Positions 415-54,992 are shown, numbered from the stretch's first letter. The stretch is 64,000 nt of DNA from an uncultured virus (IMG/VR IMGVR_UViG_3300030101_003361) (IMGVR_UViG_3300030101_003361:1-64000); one strand, 5' to 3'. A program made the numbers and translations. Notes: generated from the sequence alone by a model not told the origin.

Positions 415-708
415 ATGACACTATATTATAAGTATCAGACCTGGAATACCGGCATGCAGATGCAGCCACAAATACCAGAAGAAACAATTCAGCTTTGGAA
501 GAACATCGTAAAGAAAAGCAACTGGCGTATCGTTGAATTGCCAAACGGCTTTTATCAAACCGAGTGCCAGAGCTCAGATAAATGGGAGGATGTGACCCGT
601 AGAGAAACAGTTGAGGGTGCAGAAAGAGCAATCGATTCTTCCATTGAACATTATAAAAAGAAACTAAAGGCTTTAGAAGGACCTAAAGTCGTTAAAACAT
701 TTAAATAA
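415..708 (+). CDS. hypothetical protein
   Basis: 97-aa ORF, first gene of the + block, TAATG-coupled to the next ORF. Confidence 0.7.
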   Translation: MTLYYKYQTWNTGMQMQPQIPEETIQLWKNIVKKSNWRIVELPNGFYQTECQSSDKWEDVTRRETVEGAERAIDSSIEHYKKKLKALEGPKVVKTFK

Positions 709-875
709 TGCCATTAGCAAAAAGAAGAACAAAGAAAAAAAAGAAAACAGGATCAAAAAAAGATGCATGTTATTATAGCGTGAAGGCGAGGTATGATGTA
801 TTTCCATCTGCCTACGCCTCTGGCGCAATTGCAAAGTGCCGTAAACGAGGTGGCCCTAGAAAAAAGAAAAGGTAA
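708..875 (+). CDS. small basic protein, 55 aa (MPLAKRRTKKKKK...KDACYYSVKARYDVFPSAYASGAIAKCRK)
   Basis: Read manually, below the ORF-track cutoff. TAATG overlaps at both ends; 21/55 residues K/R. Confidence 0.75.
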   Translation: MPLAKRRTKKKKKTGSKKDACYYSVKARYDVFPSAYASGAIAKCRKRGGPRKKKR

Positions 876-1174
876 TGCCTCGTAAGAAGAAGGACCCCAA
901 AGTGGGTACGGGTAAAAAGCCTAAAGGATCTGGCCGGCGTCTTTATACTGATGAAAATCCAAAGGACACAGTTGGTATAAAATTTAAAACGCCCGCAGAT
1001 GCAAGAGCTACTGTTGCTAAAGTAAAGCGCATTAGCAAACCCTACGCTCGTAAGATCCAAATATTAACAGTTGGAGAGCAAAGAGCAAGGGTTATGGGTA
1101 AAGCCCAAGTCGCTTCTATATTTAAAAAAGGTAAAGAAGCAATAAGAAGAGCTAACAAAAAGAAAAAGAAATAA
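875..1174 (+). CDS. small basic hypothetical protein
   Basis: 99 aa, very K/R-rich, TAATG-coupled at both ends. Confidence 0.75.
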   Translation: MPRKKKDPKVGTGKKPKGSGRRLYTDENPKDTVGIKFKTPADARATVAKVKRISKPYARKIQILTVGEQRARVMGKAQVASIFKKGKEAIRRANKKKKK

Positions 1175-1278
1175 TGCCTTATGTAAGTGCTGCGCAGCGT
1201 AAAGCCGTATGGGCGAGTCGAAACGAACAAGCTGCAAAAAAGAAACGTAAAAAGAAACGTAAAAAGAAAAAGAAATAA
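1174..1278 (+). CDS. 34-aa protamine-like peptide MPYVSAAQRKAVWASRNEQAAKKKRKKKRKKKKK
   Basis: Read manually. ATG overlaps the upstream TAA and the ORF ends 2 nt before the next ATG; 16/34 K/R. Confidence 0.65.
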   Translation: MPYVSAAQRKAVWASRNEQAAKKKRKKKRKKKKK

Positions 1279-1280
1279 TT

Positions 1281-2009
1281 ATGGGACACAAACACGGAAT
1301 TGGACCTCAAAGTTTAGGAGCATCGGGAATGAACCCCAAGTCTACACCATGTGGACATTCAAGAACTATGGGTAACTATGGTACACCATTAGATGCATCA
1401 GCAGCTCAAAATGCTGCTTTTGGCCCAGGTTCAAAATTAGCAGATGAAGATCCACAAAGAGCTGCAAAAATACTTGAAGGTATAAATGCAGAAGATTCAG
1501 GAACGAACTACGGTACGGAAAAAAAAACTCCGCTAGAATTTAACGTATTTGAAAACGCAGATCCTAGAGCTGCTGCAAATATGATGAGTGATATGGCTCC
1601 AACCGGTGGCGGTGCACCAGCTGCCCCAACCCCAGCCCCAGCTCCAGCTGCACCTAATACAGGTGGTCCTTTTGGAGGCATTACTGGCGGAGTTGCTGGG
1701 ATGCTTAGAGAAAGACTCGGCAGTACACGAGGTAGAAGCTCATTTGGTTCTAAATATGGAGATCGGAAAGGTAGAGGTGCCGCAGCAGAAGCAGCTATAG
1801 CAAATATAAAACAAAAAACAGGTTCATTACCTGGATTTGGAAGTGCTGGACCTACGGTTAATAGCCCAGGTGGAGGTTCAGGAGGTGCAATAGCAGCAGC
1901 CGAAGCAGCGCAAGCATCAGCGGATGCAGCAAATAGTCAAATGGATGCACTTAAAGAAAAACTATCAGGTATAAGAAGTCAATTAGACAGCTTATCTGGA
2001 ATGATTTAA
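1281..2009 (+). CDS. Gly/Ala/Pro-rich low-complexity protein, possibly an internal virion protein
   Basis: 242-aa ORF with PAPA linker and C-terminal coiled-coil-like segment. Confidence 0.7.
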   Translation: MGHKHGIGPQSLGASGMNPKSTPCGHSRTMGNYGTPLDASAAQNAAFGPGSKLADEDPQRAAKILEGINAEDSGTNYGTEKKTPLEFNVFENADPRAAANMMSDMAPTGGGAPAAPTPAPAPAAPNTGGPFGGITGGVAGMLRERLGSTRGRSSFGSKYGDRKGRGAAAEAAIANIKQKTGSLPGFGSAGPTVNSPGGGSGGAIAAAEAAQASADAANSQMDALKEKLSGIRSQLDSLSGMI

Positions 2010-2019
2010 AATAATAATT

Positions 2020-2187
2020 ATGGCAGGAAAAAAAGTAAAAGCCCCAGCTGGTTTCCACTGGATGAAAAAGGGCTCAGGTTACAATCTTATGAAGCACACA
2101 GGTAAATTTAAAGCTCATAAAGGTGCGTCTCTGTACGCAACATTCAATATACAGAAAGTACACAAAGGTGGCAGTAAGAAAAACTAA
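2020..2187 (+). CDS. small basic protein, 55 aa (MAGKKVKAPAGFHWMKKG...)
   Basis: Read manually; fills the gap between neighbours, A-rich leader. Confidence 0.7.
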   Translation: MAGKKVKAPAGFHWMKKGSGYNLMKHTGKFKAHKGASLYATFNIQKVHKGGSKKN

Positions 2188-2464
2188 AAAAGGTTTAGCC
2201 TTAAAACGTTGGTTTAAAGAAAAATGGACCGACGAAAAAGGCAATGTTTGCGGTTCTCGTAAAAATAAAAACACCAAAAAGTGTAGACCCTCAAGAAGAG
2301 TATCCAGTAAAACAGTAAAAACTTGGGGAGAAATGTCATCCTCTGAAAAAAGCAGAGCTGTTGCTGAAAAAAAGAGGGTTGGTATGGGTAGAAAAACATC
2401 ACAAATAAGAAGAAAAACCACAAAAGCAAAAAAGAATGTCACTTCCAAAAAACGGCGTCGCTAA
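2168..2464 (+). CDS. small basic protein (LKRWFKEKW, CG...CRP motifs)
   Basis: Track ORF 2123..2464; GTG at 2168 (MAVRKTKKG) is the more plausible start. Confidence 0.7.
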   Translation: MAVRKTKKGLALKRWFKEKWTDEKGNVCGSRKNKNTKKCRPSRRVSSKTVKTWGEMSSSEKSRAVAEKKRVGMGRKTSQIRRKTTKAKKNVTSKKRRR

Positions 2465-2846
2465 AGAAATCCGCTCATATGCGGGTAGTCTATTTATATT
2501 TTTGTTCGTAGTAGGTATTATAGTAACACTACTGCAGTTTCCAGTATTAGAATCTAATAAAGAAGTTGTAATGATGCTAATTGGTACCATTGCAGCATCA
2601 ATACCTATAATAATAAGTAGTATCACTGGTACAAAACCAGATGATGTAACTTCACTTAAAAGCACTATTGAGAAAAAAGAAAATCAAATTGATATTCTTG
2701 TAAGTGAAAAAGATAGATTAGAAAAAATGGTTATAGACTTGCAAAAGCAAATGCTTGAAAACCAAGATAATATAATGGATAGGATAATCCTTAAGGCAGC
2801 AATGGATTTTGACGATAGGAATTCTAACTGCACATGTAAGAAATAA
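2436..2846 (+). CDS. membrane protein, 2 TM plus coiled coil
   Basis: Two hydrophobic stretches followed by a heptad-like charged region. Confidence 0.7.
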   Translation: MSLPKNGVAKEIRSYAGSLFIFLFVVGIIVTLLQFPVLESNKEVVMMLIGTIAASIPIIISSITGTKPDDVTSLKSTIEKKENQIDILVSEKDRLEKMVIDLQKQMLENQDNIMDRIILKAAMDFDDRNSNCTCKK

Positions 2847-2852
2847 TACGGT

Positions 2853-3089
2853 ATGAAACGAAAATTATCCCGTAAGGCTAAAACAGCTAAAAAGAAAAGA
2901 GATCTAAAATACGCAAATTCTAGATCAAGAGAGATTAAAAGAGCTGATAGTCAAAAGAAAAGAAGAGCCGCTAAGAAAAGAGGCAAGAATATTAAAGGTA
3001 AAGACTACGATCATAAAGATCAAAAATTTAAATCAATTAAGAAAAACCGCGGTAACGACGGTAAAGGAACTAAAAAAGAAAAAAAATGA
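2853..3089 (+). CDS. small basic protein (GKDYDH...NRG, degenerate HNH-like)
   Basis: 78 aa, extremely K/R-rich; the DxDH..N pattern is only suggestive of HNH. Confidence 0.6.
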   Translation: MKRKLSRKAKTAKKKRDLKYANSRSREIKRADSQKKRRAAKKRGKNIKGKDYDHKDQKFKSIKKNRGNDGKGTKKEKK

Positions 3090-3715
3090 GTAAACATACT
3101 AAAAGACCCCAGGTTAAAACTATTGGGGAAAAGAATTTTGACGATGAAAAAAGACTTCCCGGCTTTGCTGAAGACATAACTAAAACTAATATTCAAAAAG
3201 ATGCGCAACAAAGAGATTTCAAAAGCGTTCAACGTAAAGCTTTAAAAGAATCTACATCAAATAACTATGGAACTATGAAAGCACCAAATAATATGGGAGC
3301 TCCAAATTTTTATGTAATGAATCCTGGGAGCCCTAATAAAAAAATGGATACACCGGGAGGTTTTTCATATAAAGCATCAAGTACAATGAATAAGCTTGGA
3401 TTTGTAGATTCAGGAATGAATGAGGGTCATGAAGCTGTAGCTAATTATGGTCATTCTCCTATGCCTTTTGATGATACGAAAAAAAAGAAGGAGACCAAGC
3501 CTACTGAATTAGATAACGTAACTGTTAAAGCTCCTAAAAATATAACTATTACAGAGGCTTTTTATACTGATCCATCTGGAAGACCATCTAAAACAACTAA
3601 AGAAGGTCATAAAATTATAACTAAAACTGATCCAAACAAATACACACTTATAGATGGCAAACGTAAAAAGGGAAAAATAATATCTCAATCTTTTCCAATT
3701 TACGATAGATCATAA
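3086..3715 (+). CDS. hypothetical protein
   Basis: 209-aa ORF, ATGA overlap with the upstream gene. Confidence 0.7.
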   Translation: MSKHTKRPQVKTIGEKNFDDEKRLPGFAEDITKTNIQKDAQQRDFKSVQRKALKESTSNNYGTMKAPNNMGAPNFYVMNPGSPNKKMDTPGGFSYKASSTMNKLGFVDSGMNEGHEAVANYGHSPMPFDDTKKKKETKPTELDNVTVKAPKNITITEAFYTDPSGRPSKTTKEGHKIITKTDPNKYTLIDGKRKKGKIISQSFPIYDRS

Positions 3716-3731
3716 AATATTTAAAAAATAA

Positions 3732-4043
3732 ATGCCCTTAGCTAAACGCAAAACAAGAAGAAAGCCACCGGCTCCTTCAAAGAAAAAATCGCTAGGTTAC
3801 TATGCTAAAGTTAAAAAAGGTGGAGGTACTGGAAAAAAAGCAGGCGGTGGTATGACCGCTAAAGGGGTTGCTAAATATAGAAAAGATAACCCCGGCAGTA
3901 AATTAAAGACTGCAGTTACCACACCTCCTTCTAAATTGAAAAAAGGTAGTAAAGCAGCAAAAAGAAGAAAATCTTTTTGTGCACGTTCTAAAAGTTGGAC
4001 CTCAGAAAGAGGTAGAGCTGCTAGACGTAAGTGGAACTGCTAA
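3732..4043 (+). CDS. basic protein, DUF6321-like
   Basis: GGMTAKGVAKYR.NPGSKLK...RRKSFCARS...RRKWNC resembles a recurrent phage family; the family name is from recall. Confidence 0.65.
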   Translation: MPLAKRKTRRKPPAPSKKKSLGYYAKVKKGGGTGKKAGGGMTAKGVAKYRKDNPGSKLKTAVTTPPSKLKKGSKAAKRRKSFCARSKSWTSERGRAARRKWNC

Positions 4044-4071
4044 AATAAAAAATTAAATCAAATTAAATTAA

Positions 4072-5652
4072 ATGTCACAATTCGGTAAAACAAAGCTAGT
4101 TAAAAAGATGCATTTTGATAAAAGTGCACAAGAAAAGCTTTTAACAGGTATAGATAAAATAGCAGAAGCTGTTGGATCAACACTTGGTGCAAGCGGTAGA
4201 AATGTAATTATAGAAAATGATTATGGAGATCCGCATGTAACTAAAGATGGTGTAACAGTAGCAAACAATATATTATTACAAGATCCGGTTGAAAATATTG
4301 CTGTGTCTATGATGAAACAAGCAGCACAAAAAACCGCATCGATTGCTGGAGATGGTACTACAACTTCAATAGTACTAACAAAAGCAATAATAGATTCATT
4401 TTATAAATTAAAAGGTCAAGACTTTTCATTTAGAGATATTAAGTCTGGTATAAATAAATTTGCTAAAGATGTTATAAAATATATAACAGATAAAGCAATA
4501 CCTGTAGATCTTAACAAGTTGCTAGATGTATCTATTATATCTACAAATAATGATGTTGATTTAGGTACCACTATTGCTCATGCTTTTGAAGCAGCGGGTG
4601 ATAATGGTATTGTAACTATGGAAACATCTCCGAATAACAATACATATATTGAAAATGTAAACGGTACTAAAGTTGGTAGTACCTGTAAAGTTCCTCATTT
4701 TTATACTAATAAAGAAAAAGAACTTTGCGAACTTGAAAACCCTCTCATCTTTATGAGTGTTTCTGACATACCTAATGTTAGAAAAATTCAAGAAATCCTG
4801 GAGTATGCAATCAAGTCCAATAGAAGCATGCTCCTTATTGCGCCTTTGGAATCACAGCCACTTACGGCACTTGCAATGAATAAAGCAAAGGGCAATATTA
4901 AGGTCAATGTTATAGACCCTCCTAGTTTTGGGCTTAAACGAAAAGATATACTGGAGGACCTTGCATTGCTTGTCGGGGCTACTGTTTTTGATGAGAGCCT
5001 GGGGGATTCGATTGATGCGATTACCCCTGACATGTTAGGATCAGCTGACCGTGCTGTTTCCGATAAAGACGGTACTGTACTTGTTGTTTCTGAAAAAAGC
5101 AAAGAAGTACAAGATCGAATTGAGTATTTAAAAACTACTCTTGTTAAAGAAGATCATGCTGTTATGACTAAACATTTAACAGATAGAATTGCACTTTTAA
5201 GCGGAGGCGTTTCTGTTATAATGGTTGGAGCAGCAACTGAGGTCGAATTAAAAGAAAAGCAAGATAGAGTAGACGATGCAATACATGCGGTTAGAGCTGC
5301 AAAAAAAGAAGGTATATTACCAGGTGGAGGTTCAGCATTAGCAAATGCTGCCACAATGAATTGGGAGCATACACTAAACCAAGGTGAATTAAAAGGAGTA
5401 AATATACTTCAAGAAGCTCTTATTGCACCATTTACAAAAATACTTACAAATGCTGGGCTTAACCCTAAAGACTATAAATTAGACAAATGGGGTAAAGGCG
5501 TAGATGTAACATGTGGATGTCCTAAGAATATGATTAATAAAGGAATAATTGATCCACTTCTGGTTACAAAAACAGCACTTGAAAATGCAATATCTGTTGC
5601 CACAACAATATTATCTACAGATTGTGTAATATCAAATGTTAGAGAAGTATGA
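4072..5652 (+). CDS. groEL: chaperonin GroEL (Cpn60)
   Basis: TLG..GRNV, VTKDGVTVA, AGDGTTT, R.DDA..A.RAA.EG..PGGG and GIIDP..VTK.AL.NA motifs; no GGM tail. Confidence 0.97.
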   Translation: MSQFGKTKLVKKMHFDKSAQEKLLTGIDKIAEAVGSTLGASGRNVIIENDYGDPHVTKDGVTVANNILLQDPVENIAVSMMKQAAQKTASIAGDGTTTSIVLTKAIIDSFYKLKGQDFSFRDIKSGINKFAKDVIKYITDKAIPVDLNKLLDVSIISTNNDVDLGTTIAHAFEAAGDNGIVTMETSPNNNTYIENVNGTKVGSTCKVPHFYTNKEKELCELENPLIFMSVSDIPNVRKIQEILEYAIKSNRSMLLIAPLESQPLTALAMNKAKGNIKVNVIDPPSFGLKRKDILEDLALLVGATVFDESLGDSIDAITPDMLGSADRAVSDKDGTVLVVSEKSKEVQDRIEYLKTTLVKEDHAVMTKHLTDRIALLSGGVSVIMVGAATEVELKEKQDRVDDAIHAVRAAKKEGILPGGGSALANAATMNWEHTLNQGELKGVNILQEALIAPFTKILTNAGLNPKDYKLDKWGKGVDVTCGCPKNMINKGIIDPLLVTKTALENAISVATTILSTDCVISNVREV

Positions 5653-18552: not shown

Positions 18553-18963
18553 ATGAAAAAAAAATTTAAAGATACTGCAGTTGGAAAGTTTTTATTAAAC
18601 AAAATTCCAACTGTAGTCGGATCAATTGCTAGTGGCACACCAGCTGGTGGTATTATAGAAGCTATAATAGGTAGTAGTGAAATGTCTGATGGTGATAAAG
18701 AAATTGCTTTAGAAAAACTAAAACTTGAAAGAGCTGAAATAGATGGGACAACAGAAAGATGGGTGGCAGATGCTGGCTCAGGCGCATGGCTTGCGGCCAA
18801 TGTACGTCCCTTAGTATTAATATTTTTAACAGTGAGCTATGTAATTGGGTGGTACTTAGGTTATCCACTTGATTCAATAACCGGTTTATTAACAATAGTA
18901 ATCGGAGGCTATTTCGGATCGCGAGGCGTGGAGAAAGTCTTTGGAAATAAAATGCACAAATAA
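18553..18963 (+). CDS. holin-like membrane protein (3TM-holin type)
   Basis: RW..D..S..WL..NVRP, TM segments and YFGSRG.EK; in the lysis cluster. Confidence 0.75.
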   Translation: MKKKFKDTAVGKFLLNKIPTVVGSIASGTPAGGIIEAIIGSSEMSDGDKEIALEKLKLERAEIDGTTERWVADAGSGAWLAANVRPLVLIFLTVSYVIGWYLGYPLDSITGLLTIVIGGYFGSRGVEKVFGNKMHK

Positions 18964-18964
18964 A

Positions 18965-19114
18965 ATGCAAGACTTAAGAATTTATGGTATAAGTTTAGGT
19001 GGTATAACTTTTTCTATAATGCCAGATATAAATCCGCTGCTACAAACAGTAGTATTATTATTAACAATAGTATATACCGTAATAGGTATAAAAAATAAAT
19101 TAAATAGTAAATAA
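18965..19114 (+). CDS. small holin-like membrane protein, 49 aa
   Basis: Read manually: MQDLRIYGISLGGITFSIMPDINPLLQTVVLLLTIVYTVIGIKNKLNSK; directly upstream of the endolysin. Confidence 0.65.
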   Translation: MQDLRIYGISLGGITFSIMPDINPLLQTVVLLLTIVYTVIGIKNKLNSK

Positions 19115-19115
19115 A

Positions 19116-19466
19116 ATGCCTTTAAAATATTTTAATGAATCTGAATTTAACGATTTCAAAATGATGAATAAAAAACTTCTTAATATGTTAGATAACTTAC
19201 GAGAAGTATATGGTTCACCAATAAAAATAACATCAAGTTATAGAAGTCCTGATCATCCAATAGAAGCAAAGAAAAAAGCACCAGGTGAACATGCATATGG
19301 TAATGCTGTTGATATTGCAAGTGTTGGAGGTGAGGCAACATTTAAATTAGTTAAAGCAGCTATGGAAGTTGGCTTTACAAGGATAGGAGTAAGTAGAAAA
19401 AATAATTTTGTCCATGTTGGTATCGGTTATCCCGGTGCGCCTGATATAACTCTTTGGACATATTAA
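19116..19466 (+). CDS. peptidase M15A-family endolysin
   Basis: ITSSYR, H..G.AVDI and FVHV Zn-ligand motifs. Confidence 0.85.
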   Translation: MPLKYFNESEFNDFKMMNKKLLNMLDNLREVYGSPIKITSSYRSPDHPIEAKKKAPGEHAYGNAVDIASVGGEATFKLVKAAMEVGFTRIGVSRKNNFVHVGIGYPGAPDITLWTY

Positions 19467-19476
19467 ATTAAATTAA

Positions 19477-19695
19477 ATGAAATTAATAAGAAAAATATCA
19501 ATTGGCCAAGATTATAAAAATGAAGCTATGCATTATTCTGTAGGGCAAGAAGTTTATGGTGGTCATAAAATATGTGATATATTTGAAAAAGAAAACGGGT
19601 ATCATATATATATAGAAAAAGATAATAATCAAATACCGTGGAAACACTTTAATACAAATATGGCTGTTTCAGTAGAATATAATTTAGATTATTAA
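19477..19695 (+). CDS. hypothetical protein
   Basis: 72-aa ORF, TAATG-coupled downstream. Confidence 0.65.
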   Translation: MKLIRKISIGQDYKNEAMHYSVGQEVYGGHKICDIFEKENGYHIYIEKDNNQIPWKHFNTNMAVSVEYNLDY

Positions 19696-20267
19696 TGAAT
19701 GCAATTTACAATTATATTATATTATGTAAAAATAGATATAATAATTCTAAAAAAATAAAAGATAAAGAATTAGTTCTTAATACAGAAATAACAGAAAGAG
19801 ATTATCATTTTGTAAATAGAATAGGTAAAATTATATCATTACCTTTATTTATAGATACTCCTGCTAAGATTGGTGATGAAGTAATATTACATCACAATGT
19901 ATTTAGAAGATGGTATGATATAAGAGGTAATGAAAAAAACTCTGCTGCTTTTATAAATGAAAATGAATATATAGTATCTCCAGATGAAATCTTCGCATAT
20001 AAAAGAAATAATAAATGGTATTGTTTTGATAAATTTTGTTTTGTTAAGCCATTAAAAAGCAATTCTAAATGGAGTGTTTTAAAAGAAAAAAAATTATTAG
20101 GGAAGCTTGTGTATAGCAATAATTATTTAAAGTCATTAGGTGTGTCCTGTGGAGATATAGTGGGCTTTAAACCTAACTCTGAATATGAGTTTAATATAGA
20201 AAATAAAAAATTATATAGAATATTATCAAATTATATAACACATGTCGAGAAAACAAAGAGTAATTGA
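19695..20267 (+). CDS. tandem GroES-like (double co-chaperonin domain) protein
   Basis: N-terminus MNAIYNYIIL vs GroES MRAIGNYIIL; two copies of G.(I/L)(I/V)...GD.V pattern. Confidence 0.6.
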   Translation: MNAIYNYIILCKNRYNNSKKIKDKELVLNTEITERDYHFVNRIGKIISLPLFIDTPAKIGDEVILHHNVFRRWYDIRGNEKNSAAFINENEYIVSPDEIFAYKRNNKWYCFDKFCFVKPLKSNSKWSVLKEKKLLGKLVYSNNYLKSLGVSCGDIVGFKPNSEYEFNIENKKLYRILSNYITHVEKTKSN

Positions 20268-20484
20268 TGCTGCAGAAAAAGCTTTAATTGAACTTGAAAA
20301 AGTTATTATACAAACAATAGATTTACAAGAATTAGATCCTGAAAAAGCTAAAATAGCTGCACAAGCAAAATGGGTTGCAATAGATGATTCATTAAAAATT
20401 ATAGAAAAGATAGAAGAATTATCTGAAGATAAAAAAGAAACAAAGTCTGCTAAATTTTTAAGTGTAGAAGAAAGAATTAAATAA
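20242..20484 (+). CDS. putative terminase small subunit
   Basis: 80-aa helical protein TAATG-coupled to terL; positional inference. Confidence 0.45.
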   Translation: MSRKQRVIDAAEKALIELEKVIIQTIDLQELDPEKAKIAAQAKWVAIDDSLKIIEKIEELSEDKKETKSAKFLSVEERIK

Positions 20485-22718
20485 TGTATAAACAAAATTT
20501 ATATTCAATTTATAAAAGCCATTTAACTGATAAAAAAGTAAAGCATAAAAATAAACATAAAAAATTTAGTTACGGTTATAATGAAGATCTTGATTGCGTT
20601 GTTATAAGTAAAGATGGTACAATAGGTGATATATATGAGATACAGGGTCTAAAGGTAGCAATACCTAAAACTCCTAGTATTATAAATGGTTCTGATTTAA
20701 AAAAAGAAGATCAGGTATTTATAAGAAAAGAAAGACCTCAATCATTAAATAGAATAAAAACTATATATGATTTTAAAGCACAAAGAGAAGATACAAAAGA
20801 AAAATATTATAAATATATTGATGACGAGTTTAATCATCGTGTTGATGGCTATTGGTTCATGTGCAACGGTACCCCGTGTTACCTTACAGGATCGCACTAT
20901 GTATATCTCAACTGGACTAAGATCGACGTGGGTGCACCCGACTTTCGACATGCAAACAGGATATTTTTCTACTTTTGGGAGGCATGCAAGGCTGATTACA
21001 GATGCTATGGGATGTGCTACCTTAAGAATAGACGGTCTGGTTTCTCCTTTATGGCGTCTTCAGAAATTGTCAACATTGCAACAACAACTAAGGATTCAAG
21101 ATTTGGGATTCTTTCTAAAAGTGGAGCCGACGCTAAGAAGATGTTCACGGATAAGGTGGTCCCAATCTCAACTAATTACCCGTTCTTTTTTAAACCAATA
21201 CAGGACGGTATGGAACGTCCAAAGACGGAACTCTCGTACAAGGTACCGTCAAGGAGACTCACTCGTAATACGATCCGTGCCACAGCCACCTCCTCCGATG
21301 AGATACCAACCGGCTTGGATACCACAATTGACTGGAAGAACACAGGGGATAATTCATATGACGGGGAGAAATTACAACTCCTCATCCACGACGAATCGGG
21401 CAAATGGGAAAGGCCGGACAACATCCTCAATAACTGGAGGGTTACAAAAACGTGTCTCCGTCTCGGGTCGAAAATAGTTGGTAAATGTATGATGGGATCA
21501 ACATCTAATTCATTAGATAAAGGTGGAAGTAATTTTAAAAAACTTTATTATGACTCAGACGTTACAAAACGAAATAAGAATGGCCAGACTTCAAGTGGAT
21601 TATATGCTTTGTTCTTACCTATGGAATGGGGTTACGAAGGATTTATCAATAAGTATGGGTATCCTGTATTCGACACTCCATCAAAAACGATTGAAGGAAT
21701 TGATGGTGAACAAATACGGACGGGCGTTATCGAACACTGGGAAAATGAAGTAGAAGGTTTAAAAGGGGATGCTGATAGTTTAAACGAATATTACAGACAA
21801 TTTCCAAGGTCTGAAAAACATGCTTTTAGAGATGAAACAATAAATTCTTTATTTAATCTAACAAAAATATATGAACAAATAGATTTTAATGAAGAAATGG
21901 CTTCTAAGGGCTACGTTGTTAGAGGAACATTTTCTTGGAGTAAAGGAATAAAAGATACAGAAGTAATATGGACACCTACACAAAACGGTAGATTTTTACT
22001 TTCTTGGATTCCTAATAAAAATTTAAGAAATAATATAATAGAAAAAAATAGTGTAAGGTATCCAGGTAATGAAGGTCTTGGTGCTTTTGGGTGTGATTCA
22101 TATGATATATCAGGGACTGTAGGCGGACAAGGGTCAAATGGAGCATTACACGGGTTAACGACATTTTCTATGGTTGATGATGTACCTAATACTAAATTTT
22201 TTTTAGAATATATAGCTAGACCACAGACTGCAGAAATATTTTTTGAAGATGTATTAATGGCTTGTGTATTTTATGGTATGCCTATTCTTGCAGAAAATAA
22301 TAAACCAAGATTATTATATCATTTTAAAAGAAGAGGTTATAGAGGATTTTCAATGAATCGACCTGATAAATTAAAAGGTACTTTATCAAAAACAGAATTA
22401 GAGTTAGGTGGTATACCTAATACATCTGAAGATATAAGGCAAGCACATGCCGCCGCTATTGAATCATACATAGAAGAGCATGTGGGTAAGTTAAATGAAG
22501 ATTACGGTAATATGTATTTTCAAAAAACTTTAGAAGATTGGTCTAAGTTTGATATATCAAAAAGAACAGCTTTTGACGCTTCTATTAGTAGTGGATTAGC
22601 AATAATGGCCTGTAGAAAACATTTATACAGACCAGCACAAGAAAAAAGAAAAATAAGTATTGGCTTTGGGTTTTCTAGATATAAAAACCATGGCGCTCAA
22701 AGTGAACTAATTAAATAA
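20484..22718 (+). CDS. terL: terminase large subunit
   Basis: Deviant Walker A LKNRRSGFS, Walker B LLIHDESGK, motif C GSTSN, nuclease GCDSYD; upstream of the portal. Confidence 0.92.
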   Translation: MYKQNLYSIYKSHLTDKKVKHKNKHKKFSYGYNEDLDCVVISKDGTIGDIYEIQGLKVAIPKTPSIINGSDLKKEDQVFIRKERPQSLNRIKTIYDFKAQREDTKEKYYKYIDDEFNHRVDGYWFMCNGTPCYLTGSHYVYLNWTKIDVGAPDFRHANRIFFYFWEACKADYRCYGMCYLKNRRSGFSFMASSEIVNIATTTKDSRFGILSKSGADAKKMFTDKVVPISTNYPFFFKPIQDGMERPKTELSYKVPSRRLTRNTIRATATSSDEIPTGLDTTIDWKNTGDNSYDGEKLQLLIHDESGKWERPDNILNNWRVTKTCLRLGSKIVGKCMMGSTSNSLDKGGSNFKKLYYDSDVTKRNKNGQTSSGLYALFLPMEWGYEGFINKYGYPVFDTPSKTIEGIDGEQIRTGVIEHWENEVEGLKGDADSLNEYYRQFPRSEKHAFRDETINSLFNLTKIYEQIDFNEEMASKGYVVRGTFSWSKGIKDTEVIWTPTQNGRFLLSWIPNKNLRNNIIEKNSVRYPGNEGLGAFGCDSYDISGTVGGQGSNGALHGLTTFSMVDDVPNTKFFLEYIARPQTAEIFFEDVLMACVFYGMPILAENNKPRLLYHFKRRGYRGFSMNRPDKLKGTLSKTELELGGIPNTSEDIRQAHAAAIESYIEEHVGKLNEDYGNMYFQKTLEDWSKFDISKRTAFDASISSGLAIMACRKHLYRPAQEKRKISIGFGFSRYKNHGAQSELIK
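20767..21477 (+). CDS. candidate overprinted lipoprotein (+1 frame inside terL)
   Basis: 236 codons; basic n-region, hydrophobic h-region, IGS-C32 lipobox; coincides with a local GC rise. Confidence 0.5.
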   Translation: MILKHKEKIQKKNIINILMTSLIIVLMAIGSCATVPRVTLQDRTMYISTGLRSTWVHPTFDMQTGYFSTFGRHARLITDAMGCATLRIDGLVSPLWRLQKLSTLQQQLRIQDLGFFLKVEPTLRRCSRIRWSQSQLITRSFLNQYRTVWNVQRRNSRTRYRQGDSLVIRSVPQPPPPMRYQPAWIPQLTGRTQGIIHMTGRNYNSSSTTNRANGKGRTTSSITGGLQKRVSVSGRK

Positions 22719-47131: not shown

Positions 47132-48874
47132 TTAACCATCGCAGCTTAAACAATTAGGATCCATAGCTGCTGCGGCTATATCTCCTCTCAGTACAGACTC
47201 AGTACGCATATAATACAAAGTTTTTATGCCATGTTTCCATGCTTCCATATGTACTTGATTTATCCAACGTGGAGTTGCCTCAGAAGGAAAAGCAAGATTA
47301 AGTGATACTGATTGATCAATATAATCTTGTCTTATACCTGCTTGTCTAACTAACTCTAGTTGATTTATTTCTTTAAATGTTTTGAACACGTTTTTAACTG
47401 GCTCTCCATCTTCTTGATTGAGTCTTCCTCTTTCGTCATAATACCATCCTTTAAGTGCGTCGATTGCCTGAACAGATCCACCATCGGCAAGTATCTTATC
47501 CCATGTATCTTTGTTATCAATCCCAATTTTTCTTAATACTTTTTTAAGTTCGTTATTTTTTCTAATAAATGTACCTTTAGCAGATTGCTCTGTAAATACA
47601 TTTGCAGCCCAAGGTTCAATACCCGGTGAAACATTACCTGCTAATTTAGAATTACTTACAGTTGGTGCTATAGCACGAAGATGTGTATTTCTAAATCCTG
47701 TACCTACACACCAAAGAGGTTCACCATATATTTCAGCAAGCGCTCTTGAAGCACGCTCAGTTTCAATTTTTATTTTTGAAAATATTTCACGTGTTTTAAA
47801 CTGTGCTAATAAACTTTCATAAGCAATACCTTTATTTTGTAATAAGCTATGCCACCCAAGTACACCTAACCCAACGGCTCTTCCCTTTTCAGCAGATCTT
47901 ACTGCATTTTCAAAACCTTTCATGTTTTTAGCTTTTTGAATAAATTCTTCAAGAACTCCATCTAAAAACCATGTAGCATCATATATAAGATTTGTATTTT
48001 TCCATTCATCATATTTGTCTAAATTAACAGAAGATAAGCAGCATACAAAGCTATGAGACTCATCTGTATGCAATACTATTTCACTGCATATATTAGTCAT
48101 ATGAACTTTTAAACTATTTTTCTTATATGCTTCTGGATTAGCTTTGTTTGTATTTCCTTTAAATAAGATATATGGTTCTCCAGTGGCTTTACGCTTTTGG
48201 ATAAGCTTTGACCATCTTTGCCTAGCTTCTGGATCTCCTCCTTCAAGCTTTCGCATAAACTTATCACCAACAACAGCACACTGGTGCAAGTTAAGTGATT
48301 GTCTATTGACATCTCCTTTAGGTTCTCTAATTTCAAGCCATTCGAGAAAATCGTTATGTTCAATATTGATATTAACGCTTGCAGCTCCTCTTCTAACGGA
48401 GCCTTGGTTGGTTGCGAGTATAGTTGAGTCGTATATTTTGCAAAAAGGGACAACGCCGTCTGAAGTTCCATTACCTGTAATTTTAGCACCGGCAGGACGA
48501 ATCATATTAACTCCGATACCTACACCCCCGCCGTGTTTTGCAAGTAACATCATTTCTAAATTTTTATTACCTATATCTTGAATGCTATCTGCAACATCAA
48601 TTCCAAAACAACTTATAGGTAAACCTCTGTCTGCACCTGTATTAGAAAGTACAGGAGAAGCTAAACACAACCATCCTTTCCATATATAATCAAAAAATTT
48701 ATCTGCAAGTTCTGGTTTATATAAACGCTTTGCTATAGTTTTAGCAACACGTGTATAAGCATCACGAGGTGATTCACCATTTATAAGATAGCCACCTGAT
48801 ATAGTTTTTTTGTAAACATCATTATCACCCCATGAAGGATAATCTTTACCCTTAACCCAATTGTTATTCCACAT
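47132..48874 (-). CDS. nrdA: class I ribonucleotide reductase alpha subunit, no ATP cone
   Basis: SPVLSN, ISC, GGGVG, TNICSEI, AIAPT.S, KTLYY and C-terminal CLSC. Confidence 0.95.
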   Translation of the reverse strand: MWNNNWVKGKDYPSWGDNDVYKKTISGGYLINGESPRDAYTRVAKTIAKRLYKPELADKFFDYIWKGWLCLASPVLSNTGADRGLPISCFGIDVADSIQDIGNKNLEMMLLAKHGGGVGIGVNMIRPAGAKITGNGTSDGVVPFCKIYDSTILATNQGSVRRGAASVNINIEHNDFLEWLEIREPKGDVNRQSLNLHQCAVVGDKFMRKLEGGDPEARQRWSKLIQKRKATGEPYILFKGNTNKANPEAYKKNSLKVHMTNICSEIVLHTDESHSFVCCLSSVNLDKYDEWKNTNLIYDATWFLDGVLEEFIQKAKNMKGFENAVRSAEKGRAVGLGVLGWHSLLQNKGIAYESLLAQFKTREIFSKIKIETERASRALAEIYGEPLWCVGTGFRNTHLRAIAPTVSNSKLAGNVSPGIEPWAANVFTEQSAKGTFIRKNNELKKVLRKIGIDNKDTWDKILADGGSVQAIDALKGWYYDERGRLNQEDGEPVKNVFKTFKEINQLELVRQAGIRQDYIDQSVSLNLAFPSEATPRWINQVHMEAWKHGIKTLYYMRTESVLRGDIAAAAMDPNCLSCDG

Positions 48875-48895
48875 TATTTTTATTATTTAAATTTT

Positions 48896-49864
48896 TTACC
48901 AGATATCTTCAAAATCTTCTCCTTCGTTAGCTTTTGAGTAATCAGTCGGACGAACAGCAAAGAAATCAGTATGAGTGTGCCCCCCGGTAAGATGGTAGAA
49001 CCAGTCAAGATTGCTCGCTGCAATTTTGTCGTATTCAAAGTAGGTCCCACTGTTTGAGTAACCGAGTTCAACAATTTTTTCGTTGAGACGTTTTCTGATA
49101 AATTGTTTAAGGTCGTATGCACTGAGGTTTTCAATGTCTCCTTGTTCAAACATTTTATCAATGTATCTTTCTTCTGCTTTAAGCATTGTTTTTGCTGCTT
49201 TAATAACGTGTGTATAGCAATCATTTTGTAATCCTTTAATTTCTTGGCACATATGCCTAAATAGTTGACATCCCATTTTAGAATGTAATGACTCATCTCT
49301 TACACTCCATTTCATTTGTTGTCCGATACCCTTAAGTAAATTACGTAACTGAAAAGAATATAAAACAGCAAAGGCAGAATATAAAGAAACCCCTTCCGCA
49401 AAAGCACTAAATACAGCAAGTGACTTGCCAATCCCAATTGGATCAGTGCCACTATAGCTAACAAGATTATCAAACCGTGCAGCTGTTGCAGGTTCGTGTA
49501 AAAACGCTTCAAAATTTTCAAGACCAAGTGTTTCATTTAAATAAGAATATGCTACTGCGTGAATTGTTTCTTGTGAGCCAAACATCATGGCCATTTGTTG
49601 GATTTCATGTTTAGGAAACCACGATACAACTTTTTGGGTCCAATAATCAGAAACCGCACACTCCGTTTGTGCAAATCCCAAAAGTATATTTCCAACCAAG
49701 TTCTTCTCTGCTTTGGTAAGTTTTTCATTCCAATCTTTGACGTCACCTGACATTGGTATCTCTGTGTGAAGCCAAAAAGCTTGCGCTTGTTTAAGCCAAC
49801 CTTCTGTATAATATTCCGGATATTCAAAAGGTTTATAAGGTATTCTTTCATTGAATAGACTCAT
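48896..49864 (-). CDS. nrdB: ribonucleotide reductase beta subunit
   Basis: FW...E, ETIH..AY, EG..LYS.F, RDESLH and DFF..R.TDY motifs. Confidence 0.95.
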   Translation of the reverse strand: MSLFNERIPYKPFEYPEYYTEGWLKQAQAFWLHTEIPMSGDVKDWNEKLTKAEKNLVGNILLGFAQTECAVSDYWTQKVVSWFPKHEIQQMAMMFGSQETIHAVAYSYLNETLGLENFEAFLHEPATAARFDNLVSYSGTDPIGIGKSLAVFSAFAEGVSLYSAFAVLYSFQLRNLLKGIGQQMKWSVRDESLHSKMGCQLFRHMCQEIKGLQNDCYTHVIKAAKTMLKAEERYIDKMFEQGDIENLSAYDLKQFIRKRLNEKIVELGYSNSGTYFEYDKIAASNLDWFYHLTGGHTHTDFFAVRPTDYSKANEGEDFEDIW

Positions 49865-52209: not shown

Positions 52210-53030
52210 GTATTTAATTTTGCTTTAATTGGTGGATGTGGATTATAATTTTTTATTTTAATCATATCAGATGTTGGTATTACTATATACTCTCTTACTC
52301 CTTGTTCAATAGTAAGTCCGAGAGAAATATCAACATTAGGTAATTTCCTGAAATCATTATCCAGTTGTTGTTTAGCTTGTTCGATATGATTATTATACAA
52401 ATGACAATCGCCAAGGGAAGCAATAAGTTGCCCTTCTTTATAGTTATTGCCTTTAGCCAATAGCTTGAGCAATAAACCATACATTGCAATATCATAAGGT
52501 AAGCCAAGAAACACATCAACTGATCTTTGTTGCCACATAAGATTAAGTTTGCCATCATTTATATATACTTGAAAGCAATAGTGGCAAGGTGGCAACACCA
52601 TATCGTCCAAATCATTGGGATTCCATAAGCTTGCCATAATGCGCCGCGAGCTTGGTTCTTCTTTAATTTGGATGAGTATTCTTTTAAGCTGATCAATACC
52701 ATTGAAGTCCCTAAGCTGCTTGCCGTAAACAGGACCAAGCGTGCTATCAGTTCTACCTGATCGATTATAATCATCGTTCCAGTAATTAACACCATTAGAC
52801 TGAAGGTAACGCAAATCAGTGCGGCCTTGTAATATCCATAATAATTCCGTAACTGCATGTTTAAAATATATTTTTTTAGTTGTTAATAGCGGAAAACCTA
52901 AAGCCATATCGTGCTTTATTATTCTACCAAATACTGATTTAGTACCAGTACCTGTTCTATCTTCCTTATCTTTACCGTTATATAATACACCAGCTAATAA
53001 GCTTCTATACTCGTCTTGTATGTTTATCAT
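52206..53030 (-). CDS. thyA: thymidylate synthase
   Basis: DRTGTGT, FPLLTTKK, SRR, LPPCH, QRSVD..LGLPYD and GDCHLY.NH; start placed at MINIQDEY. Confidence 0.95.
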   Translation of the reverse strand: MINIQDEYRSLLAGVLYNGKDKEDRTGTGTKSVFGRIIKHDMALGFPLLTTKKIYFKHAVTELLWILQGRTDLRYLQSNGVNYWNDDYNRSGRTDSTLGPVYGKQLRDFNGIDQLKRILIQIKEEPSSRRIMASLWNPNDLDDMVLPPCHYCFQVYINDGKLNLMWQQRSVDVFLGLPYDIAMYGLLLKLLAKGNNYKEGQLIASLGDCHLYNNHIEQAKQQLDNDFRKLPNVDISLGLTIEQGVREYIVIPTSDMIKIKNYNPHPPIKAKLNT

Positions 53031-53298: not shown

Positions 53299-54992
53299 GG
53301 CATAATATCATTTGATACATCAAATACAGGTACATAGTTACCGCTAATATGATCCCATTTAAAATGAGCTTCAGCTTGATTTTCACCTAAGTTTTGAAAC
53401 TTTACTTTAAGCACCTTAACTTTAACGGTTTTTTTATTATAATCGCGATGAACAAGTAAGCCATGATATGAAGCATCATACCATTCCCCACCACCTTTAA
53501 TATTATACATATTTGGTTCATCAATTGTACCATCTTCTTTTTTATACATTTTAGTTGGGTGTGCAACTACAATAACAAGTACATCATATTTTTTAGCAAA
53601 AGCTTCTATACGAGTTAAGTATTCCATAGTTGCATCAGGTATACTCATATTAGCAGATCCATTCATTTTAATTTTATTATACGGATCTATAACTAAACAT
53701 TTAATACCTTTTCTTTTAACGAGCTGCGCTCCTTTATTTAATACAGAATCTAAATCATATCTTTCATTTTCAATGAAAAAGAAATTATCATTCACAACAT
53801 TTGCAACTTCATTCCATTTATCTGAACCTATATCATTTTTATTTGGCATCCAATTACCAATCTTACGCATTAGCTTATGTGCATGTAAGAATGTAGGTTT
53901 ATTTTCTGGAGATGCAAATGCTGTTTTCCAACCATACTTTTGTTGATAACCAACAATCATTCTATCTACAAAATCAGATTTACCTGAACTCGGTACACCT
54001 GTTACTGTAATAAATTGGCCTGTATAAGTTGAAAATATATTATCAAAATTATCAAGACCAATTTGGTAGCCTGGTTTAAATCCTTCATGAATAAATTCCT
54101 GCAGCTCATCATCAATATCATTTAACGTTATTACGTTTTCAATAGGAACAGGACTAGCGTTTTTAATAACATCATTGAGCTTAGCGCTGCTGTTGTGTAA
54201 CAAAAAATCATTAGCGTCTTTGTAAATTCCGAAATCACACGTAAAACACGTTTCAGCTCCGAGTCTGCGAATAAGCTCTTGCTTAAGGTTTTCACCCGCC
54301 TCATCTTGATCAACCGCAATAATGATCTTTTCTTTTCCTTCGAGATAATCAATGCAGCTGTCCAAGTAATCAAGGTTATTATTATTAATTGTAGCTCCGT
54401 TTGGTACACTGATGACAGATTTGATACCCACTTCAACAAAAGATAAAGCATCAATCTCTCCTTCCACAATAACCACATAGTCGTGCCCAATAGTAGAGTC
54501 AATATTATAAAAGATTTTTTCGGCTCCTTTAACCAGTTTAAAATTTTTCTTACCATCTCTATACTTTATGTTAATTAATTCATTGTTAATAAAGTAATTG
54601 AATTGTATTGTATTCTCTTCTTTACCAGTTTGAGGCATCCATTCTTTACCTTCAGTAATTTTCATTTTTACTAAAGTGTTATTTGAAATACCTCTGCTCT
54701 CAAACCACTTAATTACTTTGTCACTTAAAAGTGGATTGGCTATTGTTTTAGGCTTAGTATAAACTTTATCGTTACCACCTTTTCTTTTGAACGTATGTAA
54801 TTGAAATACTTCATTACAATTCATACATGTACCAAGACCTCTATCCCAATCGTACATAGCACATTTAGCTTTACGATTTTGTGGTTTACGATTAGCAGAG
54901 CAAAGAGGGCATATACCCTCTCGCTTGCCAACCTCTAATTTATATTGATTGAATGTATCAATCTGAAAACCATTAATCTCGGTTTTGTTCAT
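53283..54992 (-). CDS. primase-helicase (T7 gp4/Twinkle-like)
   Basis: CPLC...CMNC Zn finger, TOPRIM VEGEID and D.DEAG, Walker A GVPSSGKS, LVIDP, VAHP. Confidence 0.92.
   Translation of the reverse strand: MNKTEINGFQIDTFNQYKLEVGKREGICPLCSANRKPQNRKAKCAMYDWDRGLGTCMNCNEVFQLHTFKRKGGNDKVYTKPKTIANPLLSDKVIKWFESRGISNNTLVKMKITEGKEWMPQTGKEENTIQFNYFINNELINIKYRDGKKNFKLVKGAEKIFYNIDSTIGHDYVVIVEGEIDALSFVEVGIKSVISVPNGATINNNNLDYLDSCIDYLEGKEKIIIAVDQDEAGENLKQELIRRLGAETCFTCDFGIYKDANDFLLHNSSAKLNDVIKNASPVPIENVITLNDIDDELQEFIHEGFKPGYQIGLDNFDNIFSTYTGQFITVTGVPSSGKSDFVDRMIVGYQQKYGWKTAFASPENKPTFLHAHKLMRKIGNWMPNKNDIGSDKWNEVANVVNDNFFFIENERYDLDSVLNKGAQLVKRKGIKCLVIDPYNKIKMNGSANMSIPDATMEYLTRIEAFAKKYDVLVIVVAHPTKMYKKEDGTIDEPNMYNIKGGGEWYDASYHGLLVHRDYNKKTVKVKVLKVKFQNLGENQAEAHFKWDHISGNYVPVFDVSNDIMPWEVG

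Follow-up and report, generated by a model that had tools for sequence, protein, structure and literature searches.

The terL locus and the reading frame nested in it

The DNA analysed here (the window) is a stretch of 64,000 bases from a virus record that is 64,469 bases long and an estimated 98% complete; the main features of the window are collected in Table 1. The terminase large subunit gene, terL, shows 37–46% identity to terL as annotated in Elemovirus and Cellulophaga phages, and among its cultured relatives the values are 45% for Flavobacterium phage elemo, 41% for Maribacter phage Panino and 37% for Cellulophaga phages. Since these cultured relatives infect Flavobacteriia, the host is probably a flavobacterium. 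No sequence match to TerL was found in the PDB.

Table 1. Positions of the genes, nested ORFs and sequence features in the window
Feature	Position	Strand	Remarks
Holin (phrog_3427)	18553–18963	+	Lysis cassette (18553–19466)
49-aa TM protein	about 18965–19114	+	Lysis cassette
M15 endolysin (PF08291)	19116–19466	+	Lysis cassette
terL, terminase large subunit (host gene of the overlap)	20484–22718	+	744 aa; PHROG 6681 (phrog_6681), E 1.7e-172
ORF1, nested +1 ORF, predicted lipoprotein (type A)	20767–21477	+	236 aa; +1 frame of terL
Predicted signal peptide of ORF1	20767–20859	+	31 aa; ATG at terL codon 95; Lys-rich n-region, h-region, lipobox IGS
Cys32 of ORF1, predicted lipidation site	20860–20862	+	
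Mature chain of ORF1	20860–21474	+	205 aa; pI 11.8; net +25; R/T/S/Q-rich; no confident fold
Raised-GC3 block in terL	20844–21473	+	Codons 121–330; most conserved TerL part, mean 80% aa identity
ORF2, second nested +1 ORF in terL	21523–21753	+	Start at GTG 21523 (76 aa) or at ATG 21580 (57 aa)
+1 ORF in nrdA	48109–48501	-	Codons 135–254 open in 51/70 homologues, window included
+1 ORF in nrdB	48883–49299	-	C-terminal hydrophobic segment; codons 222–321 open in 35/89
+1 ORF in thyA	52559–52882	-	Hydrophobic segments; codons 77–183 open in 35/44
+1 ORF in primase-helicase	54131–54565	-	Hydrophobic segments; interval over-long in 5/20 genomes, window included

The stop-to-stop span of ORF1 is 239 codons, counted from 20758. 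In the initial annotation this ORF was described as the longest alternative-frame ORF of the window, with a lipobox Cys encoded by TGT at 20860 and a rise in GC over the overlap. The ORF has the length described and is the longest among the alternative-frame ORFs listed; the position of the TGT is exact, as are the GC counts given for 21241–21300 (34/60), 20701–20760 (13/60) and 21841–21900 (10/60). The effect on the third codon positions of terL is pronounced, with a GC3 of 0.48 in the overlap versus 0.10 upstream and 0.17 downstream; in blocks of 30 codons, GC3 lies between 0.33 and 0.67 across codons 121–330 and is 0.13 after the ORF1 stop. This block is a footprint of dual coding. It coincides with the most conserved part of TerL, which we take to be the N-terminal, ATPase-type half, and judged from the sequences compared here ORF1 is a product of overprinting in that part of the gene.

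Other genes of the window also deserve mention. A groEL gene (PF00118) is carried by the phage at 4072–5903, followed by a small ORF that is presumably GroES-like, and upstream of groEL there is a cluster of small, very Lys/Arg-rich proteins (700–4050); a second GroES-family gene (phrog_13932) is located ahead of terL, at 19695–20267. A scan for sigma-70-type promoters gave 22 sites versus 24.2 expected, with a consensus that is unsuited to this host group, and the assembled contigs of RNA runs indicate presence only, not strand, level or translation. Near codon 304 of one terL relative (L060:2857–6064) there is an in-frame insert, approximately 320 codons long, which may be an intein.

Conservation of the open +1 frame

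Codon shuffling had been proposed in the initial annotation as a null for the length of ORF1, and in this null the length went unmatched: in whole-gene synonymous shuffles of terL the longest +1 frame had a mean of 60 codons and a maximum of 165, and 0/20,000 reached 239. When only the overlap's own codons were shuffled, the probability of obtaining no stop was 0.00065.

The comparison with relatives was based on the best 80 of 601 terL relatives from viral contigs, 69 of which cover terL codons 113–255. No +1 stop is present in this interval in 47 of the 69 (TerL 60–85% identical) and 1–10 stops are present in the other 22. As a control, downstream stretches of terL of equal length contain 5–17 +1 stops in every row (all 76 and all 70), and the per-genome chance of finding zero +1 stops under its own codon usage has a median of 4e-5. 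The 41 open genomes that were analysed fall into 31 clusters at 90% nucleotide identity. The +1 frame is also open in 21 of 30 further records chosen by nrdB or primase, and two of the nine that are not open carry a short ORF1 version of 116–117 aa. A 103-codon open stretch is kept in one closed genome (G028). The cultured Elemovirus terL and MW202828 have a closed +1 frame, with no run longer than 54 codons.

On a tree built by a quick search from terL codons 335–744 (65 rows), the open or closed label requires 7 changes, of which only 2 are forced by the starred branches; the history of the open frame is likely one of gain, followed by losses or recombination. The nulls and the relatives together strongly support that in many of these phages the +1 frame is held open by selection, and they indicate that ORF1 is very probably a genuine, translated gene.

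The leader of ORF1 and selection on its residues

The genomes were divided into those with a leader like that of the window (type A), those in which the leader and the Cys lie approximately 15 codons downstream (type B), and those whose frame contains stops (closed). The ATG at terL codon 95 is present in 17/19 type A rows, and over terL codons 96–112 stop-making codons were found in 1/28 cases in type A versus 14/30 in type B and 13/29 in closed genomes. The start at 20767 is thus supported by a conserved ATG and by an avoidance of stops that is confined to type A. It is this avoidance, and not the start-site score, that picks the start, because the score derived from the genes of the window ranks 20767 low (2.4, near the lower quartile), with a TTG at 20818 scoring 4.3. 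In type B a stop is often found at codon 112, with an ATG or TTG at 109–116. In one genome, L064, a type A leader and lipobox are combined with a stop at terL codon 225, and the ATG at codon 95 is missing; this may be a shortened or decaying copy.

Selection on the residues was evaluated against a null in which terL was recoded at random in each genome, using its own codon usage and with +1 stops forbidden. In type A, the segment encoded at terL codons 110–123 is more hydrophobic than the null in 23/23 genomes (KD 2.45 versus 1.15), and the next segment, the body and the tail are more polar than the null in 24/24; in the window the h-region corresponds to approximately 20812–20853. In type B, the hydrophobic excess is found at terL codons 127–139 in 22/22 genomes, followed by a Cys at 140/142, and the body is more polar than the null, again in 22/22. 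Closed genomes do not differ from the null in hydropathy.

The lipobox was scored with a PROSITE-type pattern, which is present in 23/23 type A genomes (null 0.027), 3/22 type B and 0/19 closed. By this pattern the arrangement of a basic n-region, an h-region and a lipobox with its Cys at position 15–35 is shared by these 23/23 type A genomes, and a six-frame pattern scan of the window gave ORF1 as the sole lipoprotein-like ORF. Conservation of the lipobox Cys, proposed as a check in the initial annotation, holds for type A and not for type B, where the Cys is mostly preceded by Thr or Ile, so a single lipobox is not common to the whole family. The choice of synonymous codons in terL follows the same division. 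Phe125 of TerL is encoded by TTC in 19/19 type A rows, which places a Ser at position -1 of the Cys, and by TTT in 19/19 closed rows, and the other Phe codons of the overlap vary; similarly, Leu142 is TTG or CTG, giving the Cys, in 20/22 type B and in 3/19 closed genomes. In one type A row TerL has Arg in place of Cys at residue 127 and the +1 Cys is still kept.

From these comparisons, selection on the residues of ORF1, namely on the hydrophobic leader, the Ser-Cys lipobox and the polar body, is strongly supported, and so is the lipoprotein-type leader, in agreement with the signal peptidase II signal noted at the outset. With a leader of this kind the product would, with good probability, be exported and anchored in a membrane, and it is probably lipidated at Cys32. 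K-(D/E)2 and Q-A-(D/E)2, described as a lipoprotein surface-export signal (PMC5080379), are both absent after the Cys of ORF1.

The predicted mature chain of ORF1

The predicted mature chain contains 27 Arg and 5 Lys. Compared with the null, Arg is enriched (12.5 vs 4.2%) and Lys is depleted (3.8 vs 10.1%). The pairwise identity of most type A products is 47–58%, and the position of the C-terminus varies from terL codon 259 to 332, with short forms ending near 225–229. Synonymous divergence of terL is lower in the overlap for some close pairs and not for distant ones, a comparison that is confounded by codon bias and recombination. Because the protein diverges fast and synonymous divergence is not clearly lower, the constraint on the sequence of ORF1 appears to be weak. 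AlphaFold2 models from alignments of 43 and 114 sequences had a mean pLDDT of 41.5 and 43.5, and only the leader exceeded 70.

Scans of ORF1 against Pfam and PHROG gave no match at E 0.1, spanin families included. The best score in the ESM Atlas was 0.76, for a 'putative Lipoprotein', which is below the level at which a match was counted, and an exact look-up found 0/9 sequences in the collection searched. A profile search retrieved 166 proteins, apparently the same +1 product as called by gene finders, and Pfam domains are absent from all 120 proteins listed.

Nested ORFs in other enzyme genes

The region of ORF2 (terL codons 345–402) is free of +1 stops in all 19 type A and all 22 type B genomes as well as in 13/19 closed ones, groups that were defined on the ORF1 region and not on ORF2. 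Its stop-making codons amount to 0/38, 0/47 and 12/40, respectively, and stop-prone sites are few. An ATG at codon 366 is present in 19/19 type A and 11/22 type B genomes, and the product has a conserved CSYLWNG motif.

The initial annotation had cautioned that shorter +1 ORFs also occur in other enzyme genes of this genome. This is correct, but those ORFs are themselves conserved (Table 1); counts of nested ORFs drawn from open-only genomes are zero by construction and are not evidence. In 21 genomes, with 578 genes of at least 200 aa, the +1 frame is longer than in all 200 shuffles in 52 genes and the +2 frame in 8. Five genes account for 48 of the 52: terL (12/21), nrdA (14/18), nrdB (10/18), the primase-helicase (6/20) and thyA (6/17), and the count is 0/21 for each of the portal, the putative capsid protein and the putative scaffold. 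The position of the over-long frame in nrdA varies by lineage (codons 124–258 or 285–447), and the states of these nested frames are not tied to that of terL. Many of the nested products have hydrophobic segments, but hydrophobicity is the default for the +1 frame of an AT-rich gene. An over-long +2 frame was also seen in 5/18 nrdA genes, and further over-long or conserved +1 ORFs are located on the minus strand at 49312–49536 and 52295–52558; in this genome three +1 ORFs take up nearly the whole of nrdB.

The slowly evolving cores of these enzymes may serve as a template stable enough for an open +1 frame to persist until it is recruited. A bolder proposal, which we regard as rather unlikely, is that in this clade of Flavobacteriia-type phages small envelope proteins have arisen again and again in the +1 frame of the five best-conserved enzyme genes, at positions that vary with the lineage. 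On this view the lipoprotein nested in terL would be an outer-membrane disruptor that was born de novo and is defined by its composition, it would have replaced free spanin-like lipoproteins, and its leader would have been written twice over one and the same terminase sequence, approximately 15 codons apart.

The lysis cassette and the possible role of ORF1

The holin and endolysin genes were confirmed to lie approximately 1.3 kb upstream of ORF1, and there is no lipoprotein gene beside the cassette. Free-standing lipoproteins were surveyed in 36 genomes, which after setting aside two short ones left 10 closed and 24 open. Lipoproteins of 100–400 aa occur in 6/10 closed versus 1/24 open genomes (p=0.001, with the 100-aa cut-off set after the data had been seen), and a lipoprotein no more than four genes away from the endolysin was seen in 5/7 closed versus 3/21 open (p=0.009); for free lipoproteins of any size the figures are 6/10 and 7/24 (p=0.13). 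This contrast is a hint only, because the cut-off is post hoc and the genomes are related. Within the 55–400 aa range scanned, 4/10 closed genomes have no free lipoprotein, and one open genome (G019) carries both ORF1 and a free lipoprotein.

One family of free lipoproteins, of 135–161 aa and with a Pro- and Lys-rich tail, has five carriers, of which G005, G011 and G018 are closed, G021 has the short form and G019 is open, and in 4/5 it adjoins the M15 endolysin on its downstream side (L340:1501–1908, L341, L343 and L344, from G018, G005, G011 and G019). ORF1 has no similarity to this family (hhalign probability 0.2%). The proteins of these four loci fall in large viral clusters without Pfam assignment in the ESM Atlas, and in three of the four a TM protein of 97–106 aa is encoded a few genes upstream, so that the pair may be a two-part spanin.

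A mechanism can be outlined in which the late terL transcript would be translated by ribosomes from ATG 20767, and the product would be exported by Sec, lipidated at Cys32 and cut by signal peptidase II. The result would be a membrane-anchored, periplasm-facing and largely unstructured polycation of 205 aa, in which composition would outweigh sequence; as a late-phase envelope protein it would help to breach the outer membrane at lysis, which is the weakest step, and would stand in for the free lysis-cassette lipoproteins of many closed-frame relatives. We consider this chain of steps, taken as a whole, somewhat probable. A role in lysis as such is a tentative possibility, and the location of ORF1 does not imply it, because similar nested ORFs sit in replication genes. 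Of the initial proposal of a hidden lysis lipoprotein, the overprinted gene and the lipoprotein leader stood, the Rz1/spanin architecture did not, and the function in lysis gained modest support.

Among the other explanations, the best placed, which we nevertheless think doubtful, is a membrane-anchored protein for superinfection exclusion, receptor blocking or counter-defence at the envelope. Exclusion by phage lipoproteins has precedents in T5 Llp and Cor. The leader evidence is the same as for the lysis reading, fast divergence and a variable C-terminus suit a protein engaged in conflict, and the other nested ORFs are mostly hydrophobic and in replication genes; however, ORF1 lies in a late packaging gene, is partially complementary to the lipoproteins of lysis cassettes and has no family match. 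That ORF1 is an o-spanin pairing with a distant i-spanin is improbable. It has a lipobox and a Pro-rich stretch, and the nearest candidate partner, a TM protein of 136 aa in which hydrophobic segments at the N-terminus precede a coiled-coil-like tail (2436–2846, plus strand), gives a weak Rz-like spanin match (E 0.043) and has homologues in 5/10 open and 0/10 closed or short genomes. On the other hand, this candidate is 18 kb away and looks to have two hydrophobic segments, the remaining 5/10 open genomes are without it, and ORF1 exceeds Rz1 fivefold in size, with a C-terminus that is not conserved.

Still less probable is that the openness serves something other than a product, be it RNA structure, a GC-rich recombinant segment, codon-pair bias or frameshift tolerance. 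The weak synonymous suppression and the lack of a fold for ORF1 would fit this idea, as would five single database proteins that fuse TerL and the +1 frame. However, local RNA folding of the overlap showed no excess (z-scores of -0.7 to +2.0 in 8 open genomes), and wherever no stop would result, the xTA codons (TTA/CTA/ATA/GTA) keep their normal use (112/175 and 137/227 within the overlap versus 0.68 and 0.63 beyond it), so the openness is explained neither by RNA structure nor by a patch rich in GC. The xTA counts of 0/157 and 0/185 come from groups that were chosen for their lack of stops; they could only be zero and are not evidence. Moreover, adjacent segments shift their hydropathy in opposite directions and at positions that move with the lineage, and three of the fusion junctions differ in place, as errors by indels would. 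A programmed frameshift from terL was rejected because every fusion is a singleton, the junctions do not coincide and the ATG of type A is conserved. Finally, a chance ORF, to which the default hydrophobicity of such +1 frames (at the leader the null has a mean KD of about 1.1) and a Cys partly forced by TerL Met126 would lend themselves, is refuted for practical purposes by the shuffle and residue nulls and the open relatives.

The case of ORF1 is of general interest: a 236-codon gene inside terL, a standard phylogenetic marker, recodes its host gene from a GC3 of 0.1–0.17 to about 0.5, and does so over the most conserved part of terL in a phage group that is common in a marine setting. The full, short and closed frames, together with the two leader positions, constitute a natural series for the study of gene birth and loss. 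The pattern in five enzymes implies several unannotated proteins per genome, and if ORF1 did act in lysis, it would offer a testable answer to how spaninless phages of Bacteroidota cross the outer membrane.

Comparison with known systems

Most known cases of gene nesting in phages involve lysis genes or come from tiny genomes, Rz1 and phiX174 E being examples. Short out-of-frame ORFs in a terminase gene are found in T7, where genes 19.2 and 19.3 lie in gene 19; they resemble ORF1 in being out of frame within the gene for the large subunit, and differ in belonging to an unrelated phage. A literature search, with subscription papers largely outside its reach, found no paper on ORF1 or on a +1 pattern over several enzymes.

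The analogy drawn at first was with lambda Rz1, which is likewise an out-of-frame nested lipoprotein gene from a phage of a Gram-negative host, with a lipobox and some Pro-rich character. In architecture this analogy failed, given that ORF1 is nested in terL and not in an i-spanin gene, has no identified partner, fold or C-terminal TM segment, and would give a mature chain of 205 aa and not a small lipoprotein; mature Rz1 has 40 aa and binds Rz through its C-terminus (bioRxiv 515445). Unimolecular spanins of the T1 gp11 type share the N-terminal lipobox with ORF1, whereas ORF1 lacks their C-terminal TM helix (C-terminal hydropathy -0.1). Such spanins are annotated in the flavobacterial phages Ingeline and Nekkels (PMC8776804), and the same architecture occurs as free genes in three closed-frame relatives of the ORF1 phage (L019:735–1214, L041:395–829 and L259:1474–1923). 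These u-spanin-like proteins with a C-terminal TM are found in 3/41 records, all of them closed and two being the queries themselves; the two scanned against Pfam gave no match and the two scanned against PHROG obtained no name.

The disruptin gp28 of phiKT is a further candidate for comparison, as a cationic disruptor of the outer membrane in a phage without a recognisable spanin; it is described as a 56-aa amphipathic helix from a phage without a lipoprotein gene (bioRxiv 515445). ORF1 is also cationic (+25) and differs in its 205 aa, its lipobox and the lack of a confident helix beyond the leader. With phiX174 gene E, nested in gene D, ORF1 shares the de novo birth of a membrane protein in an alternative frame, and the hydrophobicity of E is set by the third positions of the host gene (PMC8227390). 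E itself is a small TM protein that inhibits the synthesis of the wall, whereas the predicted product of ORF1 combines a leader of the cleavable type with a long, polar and basic body.
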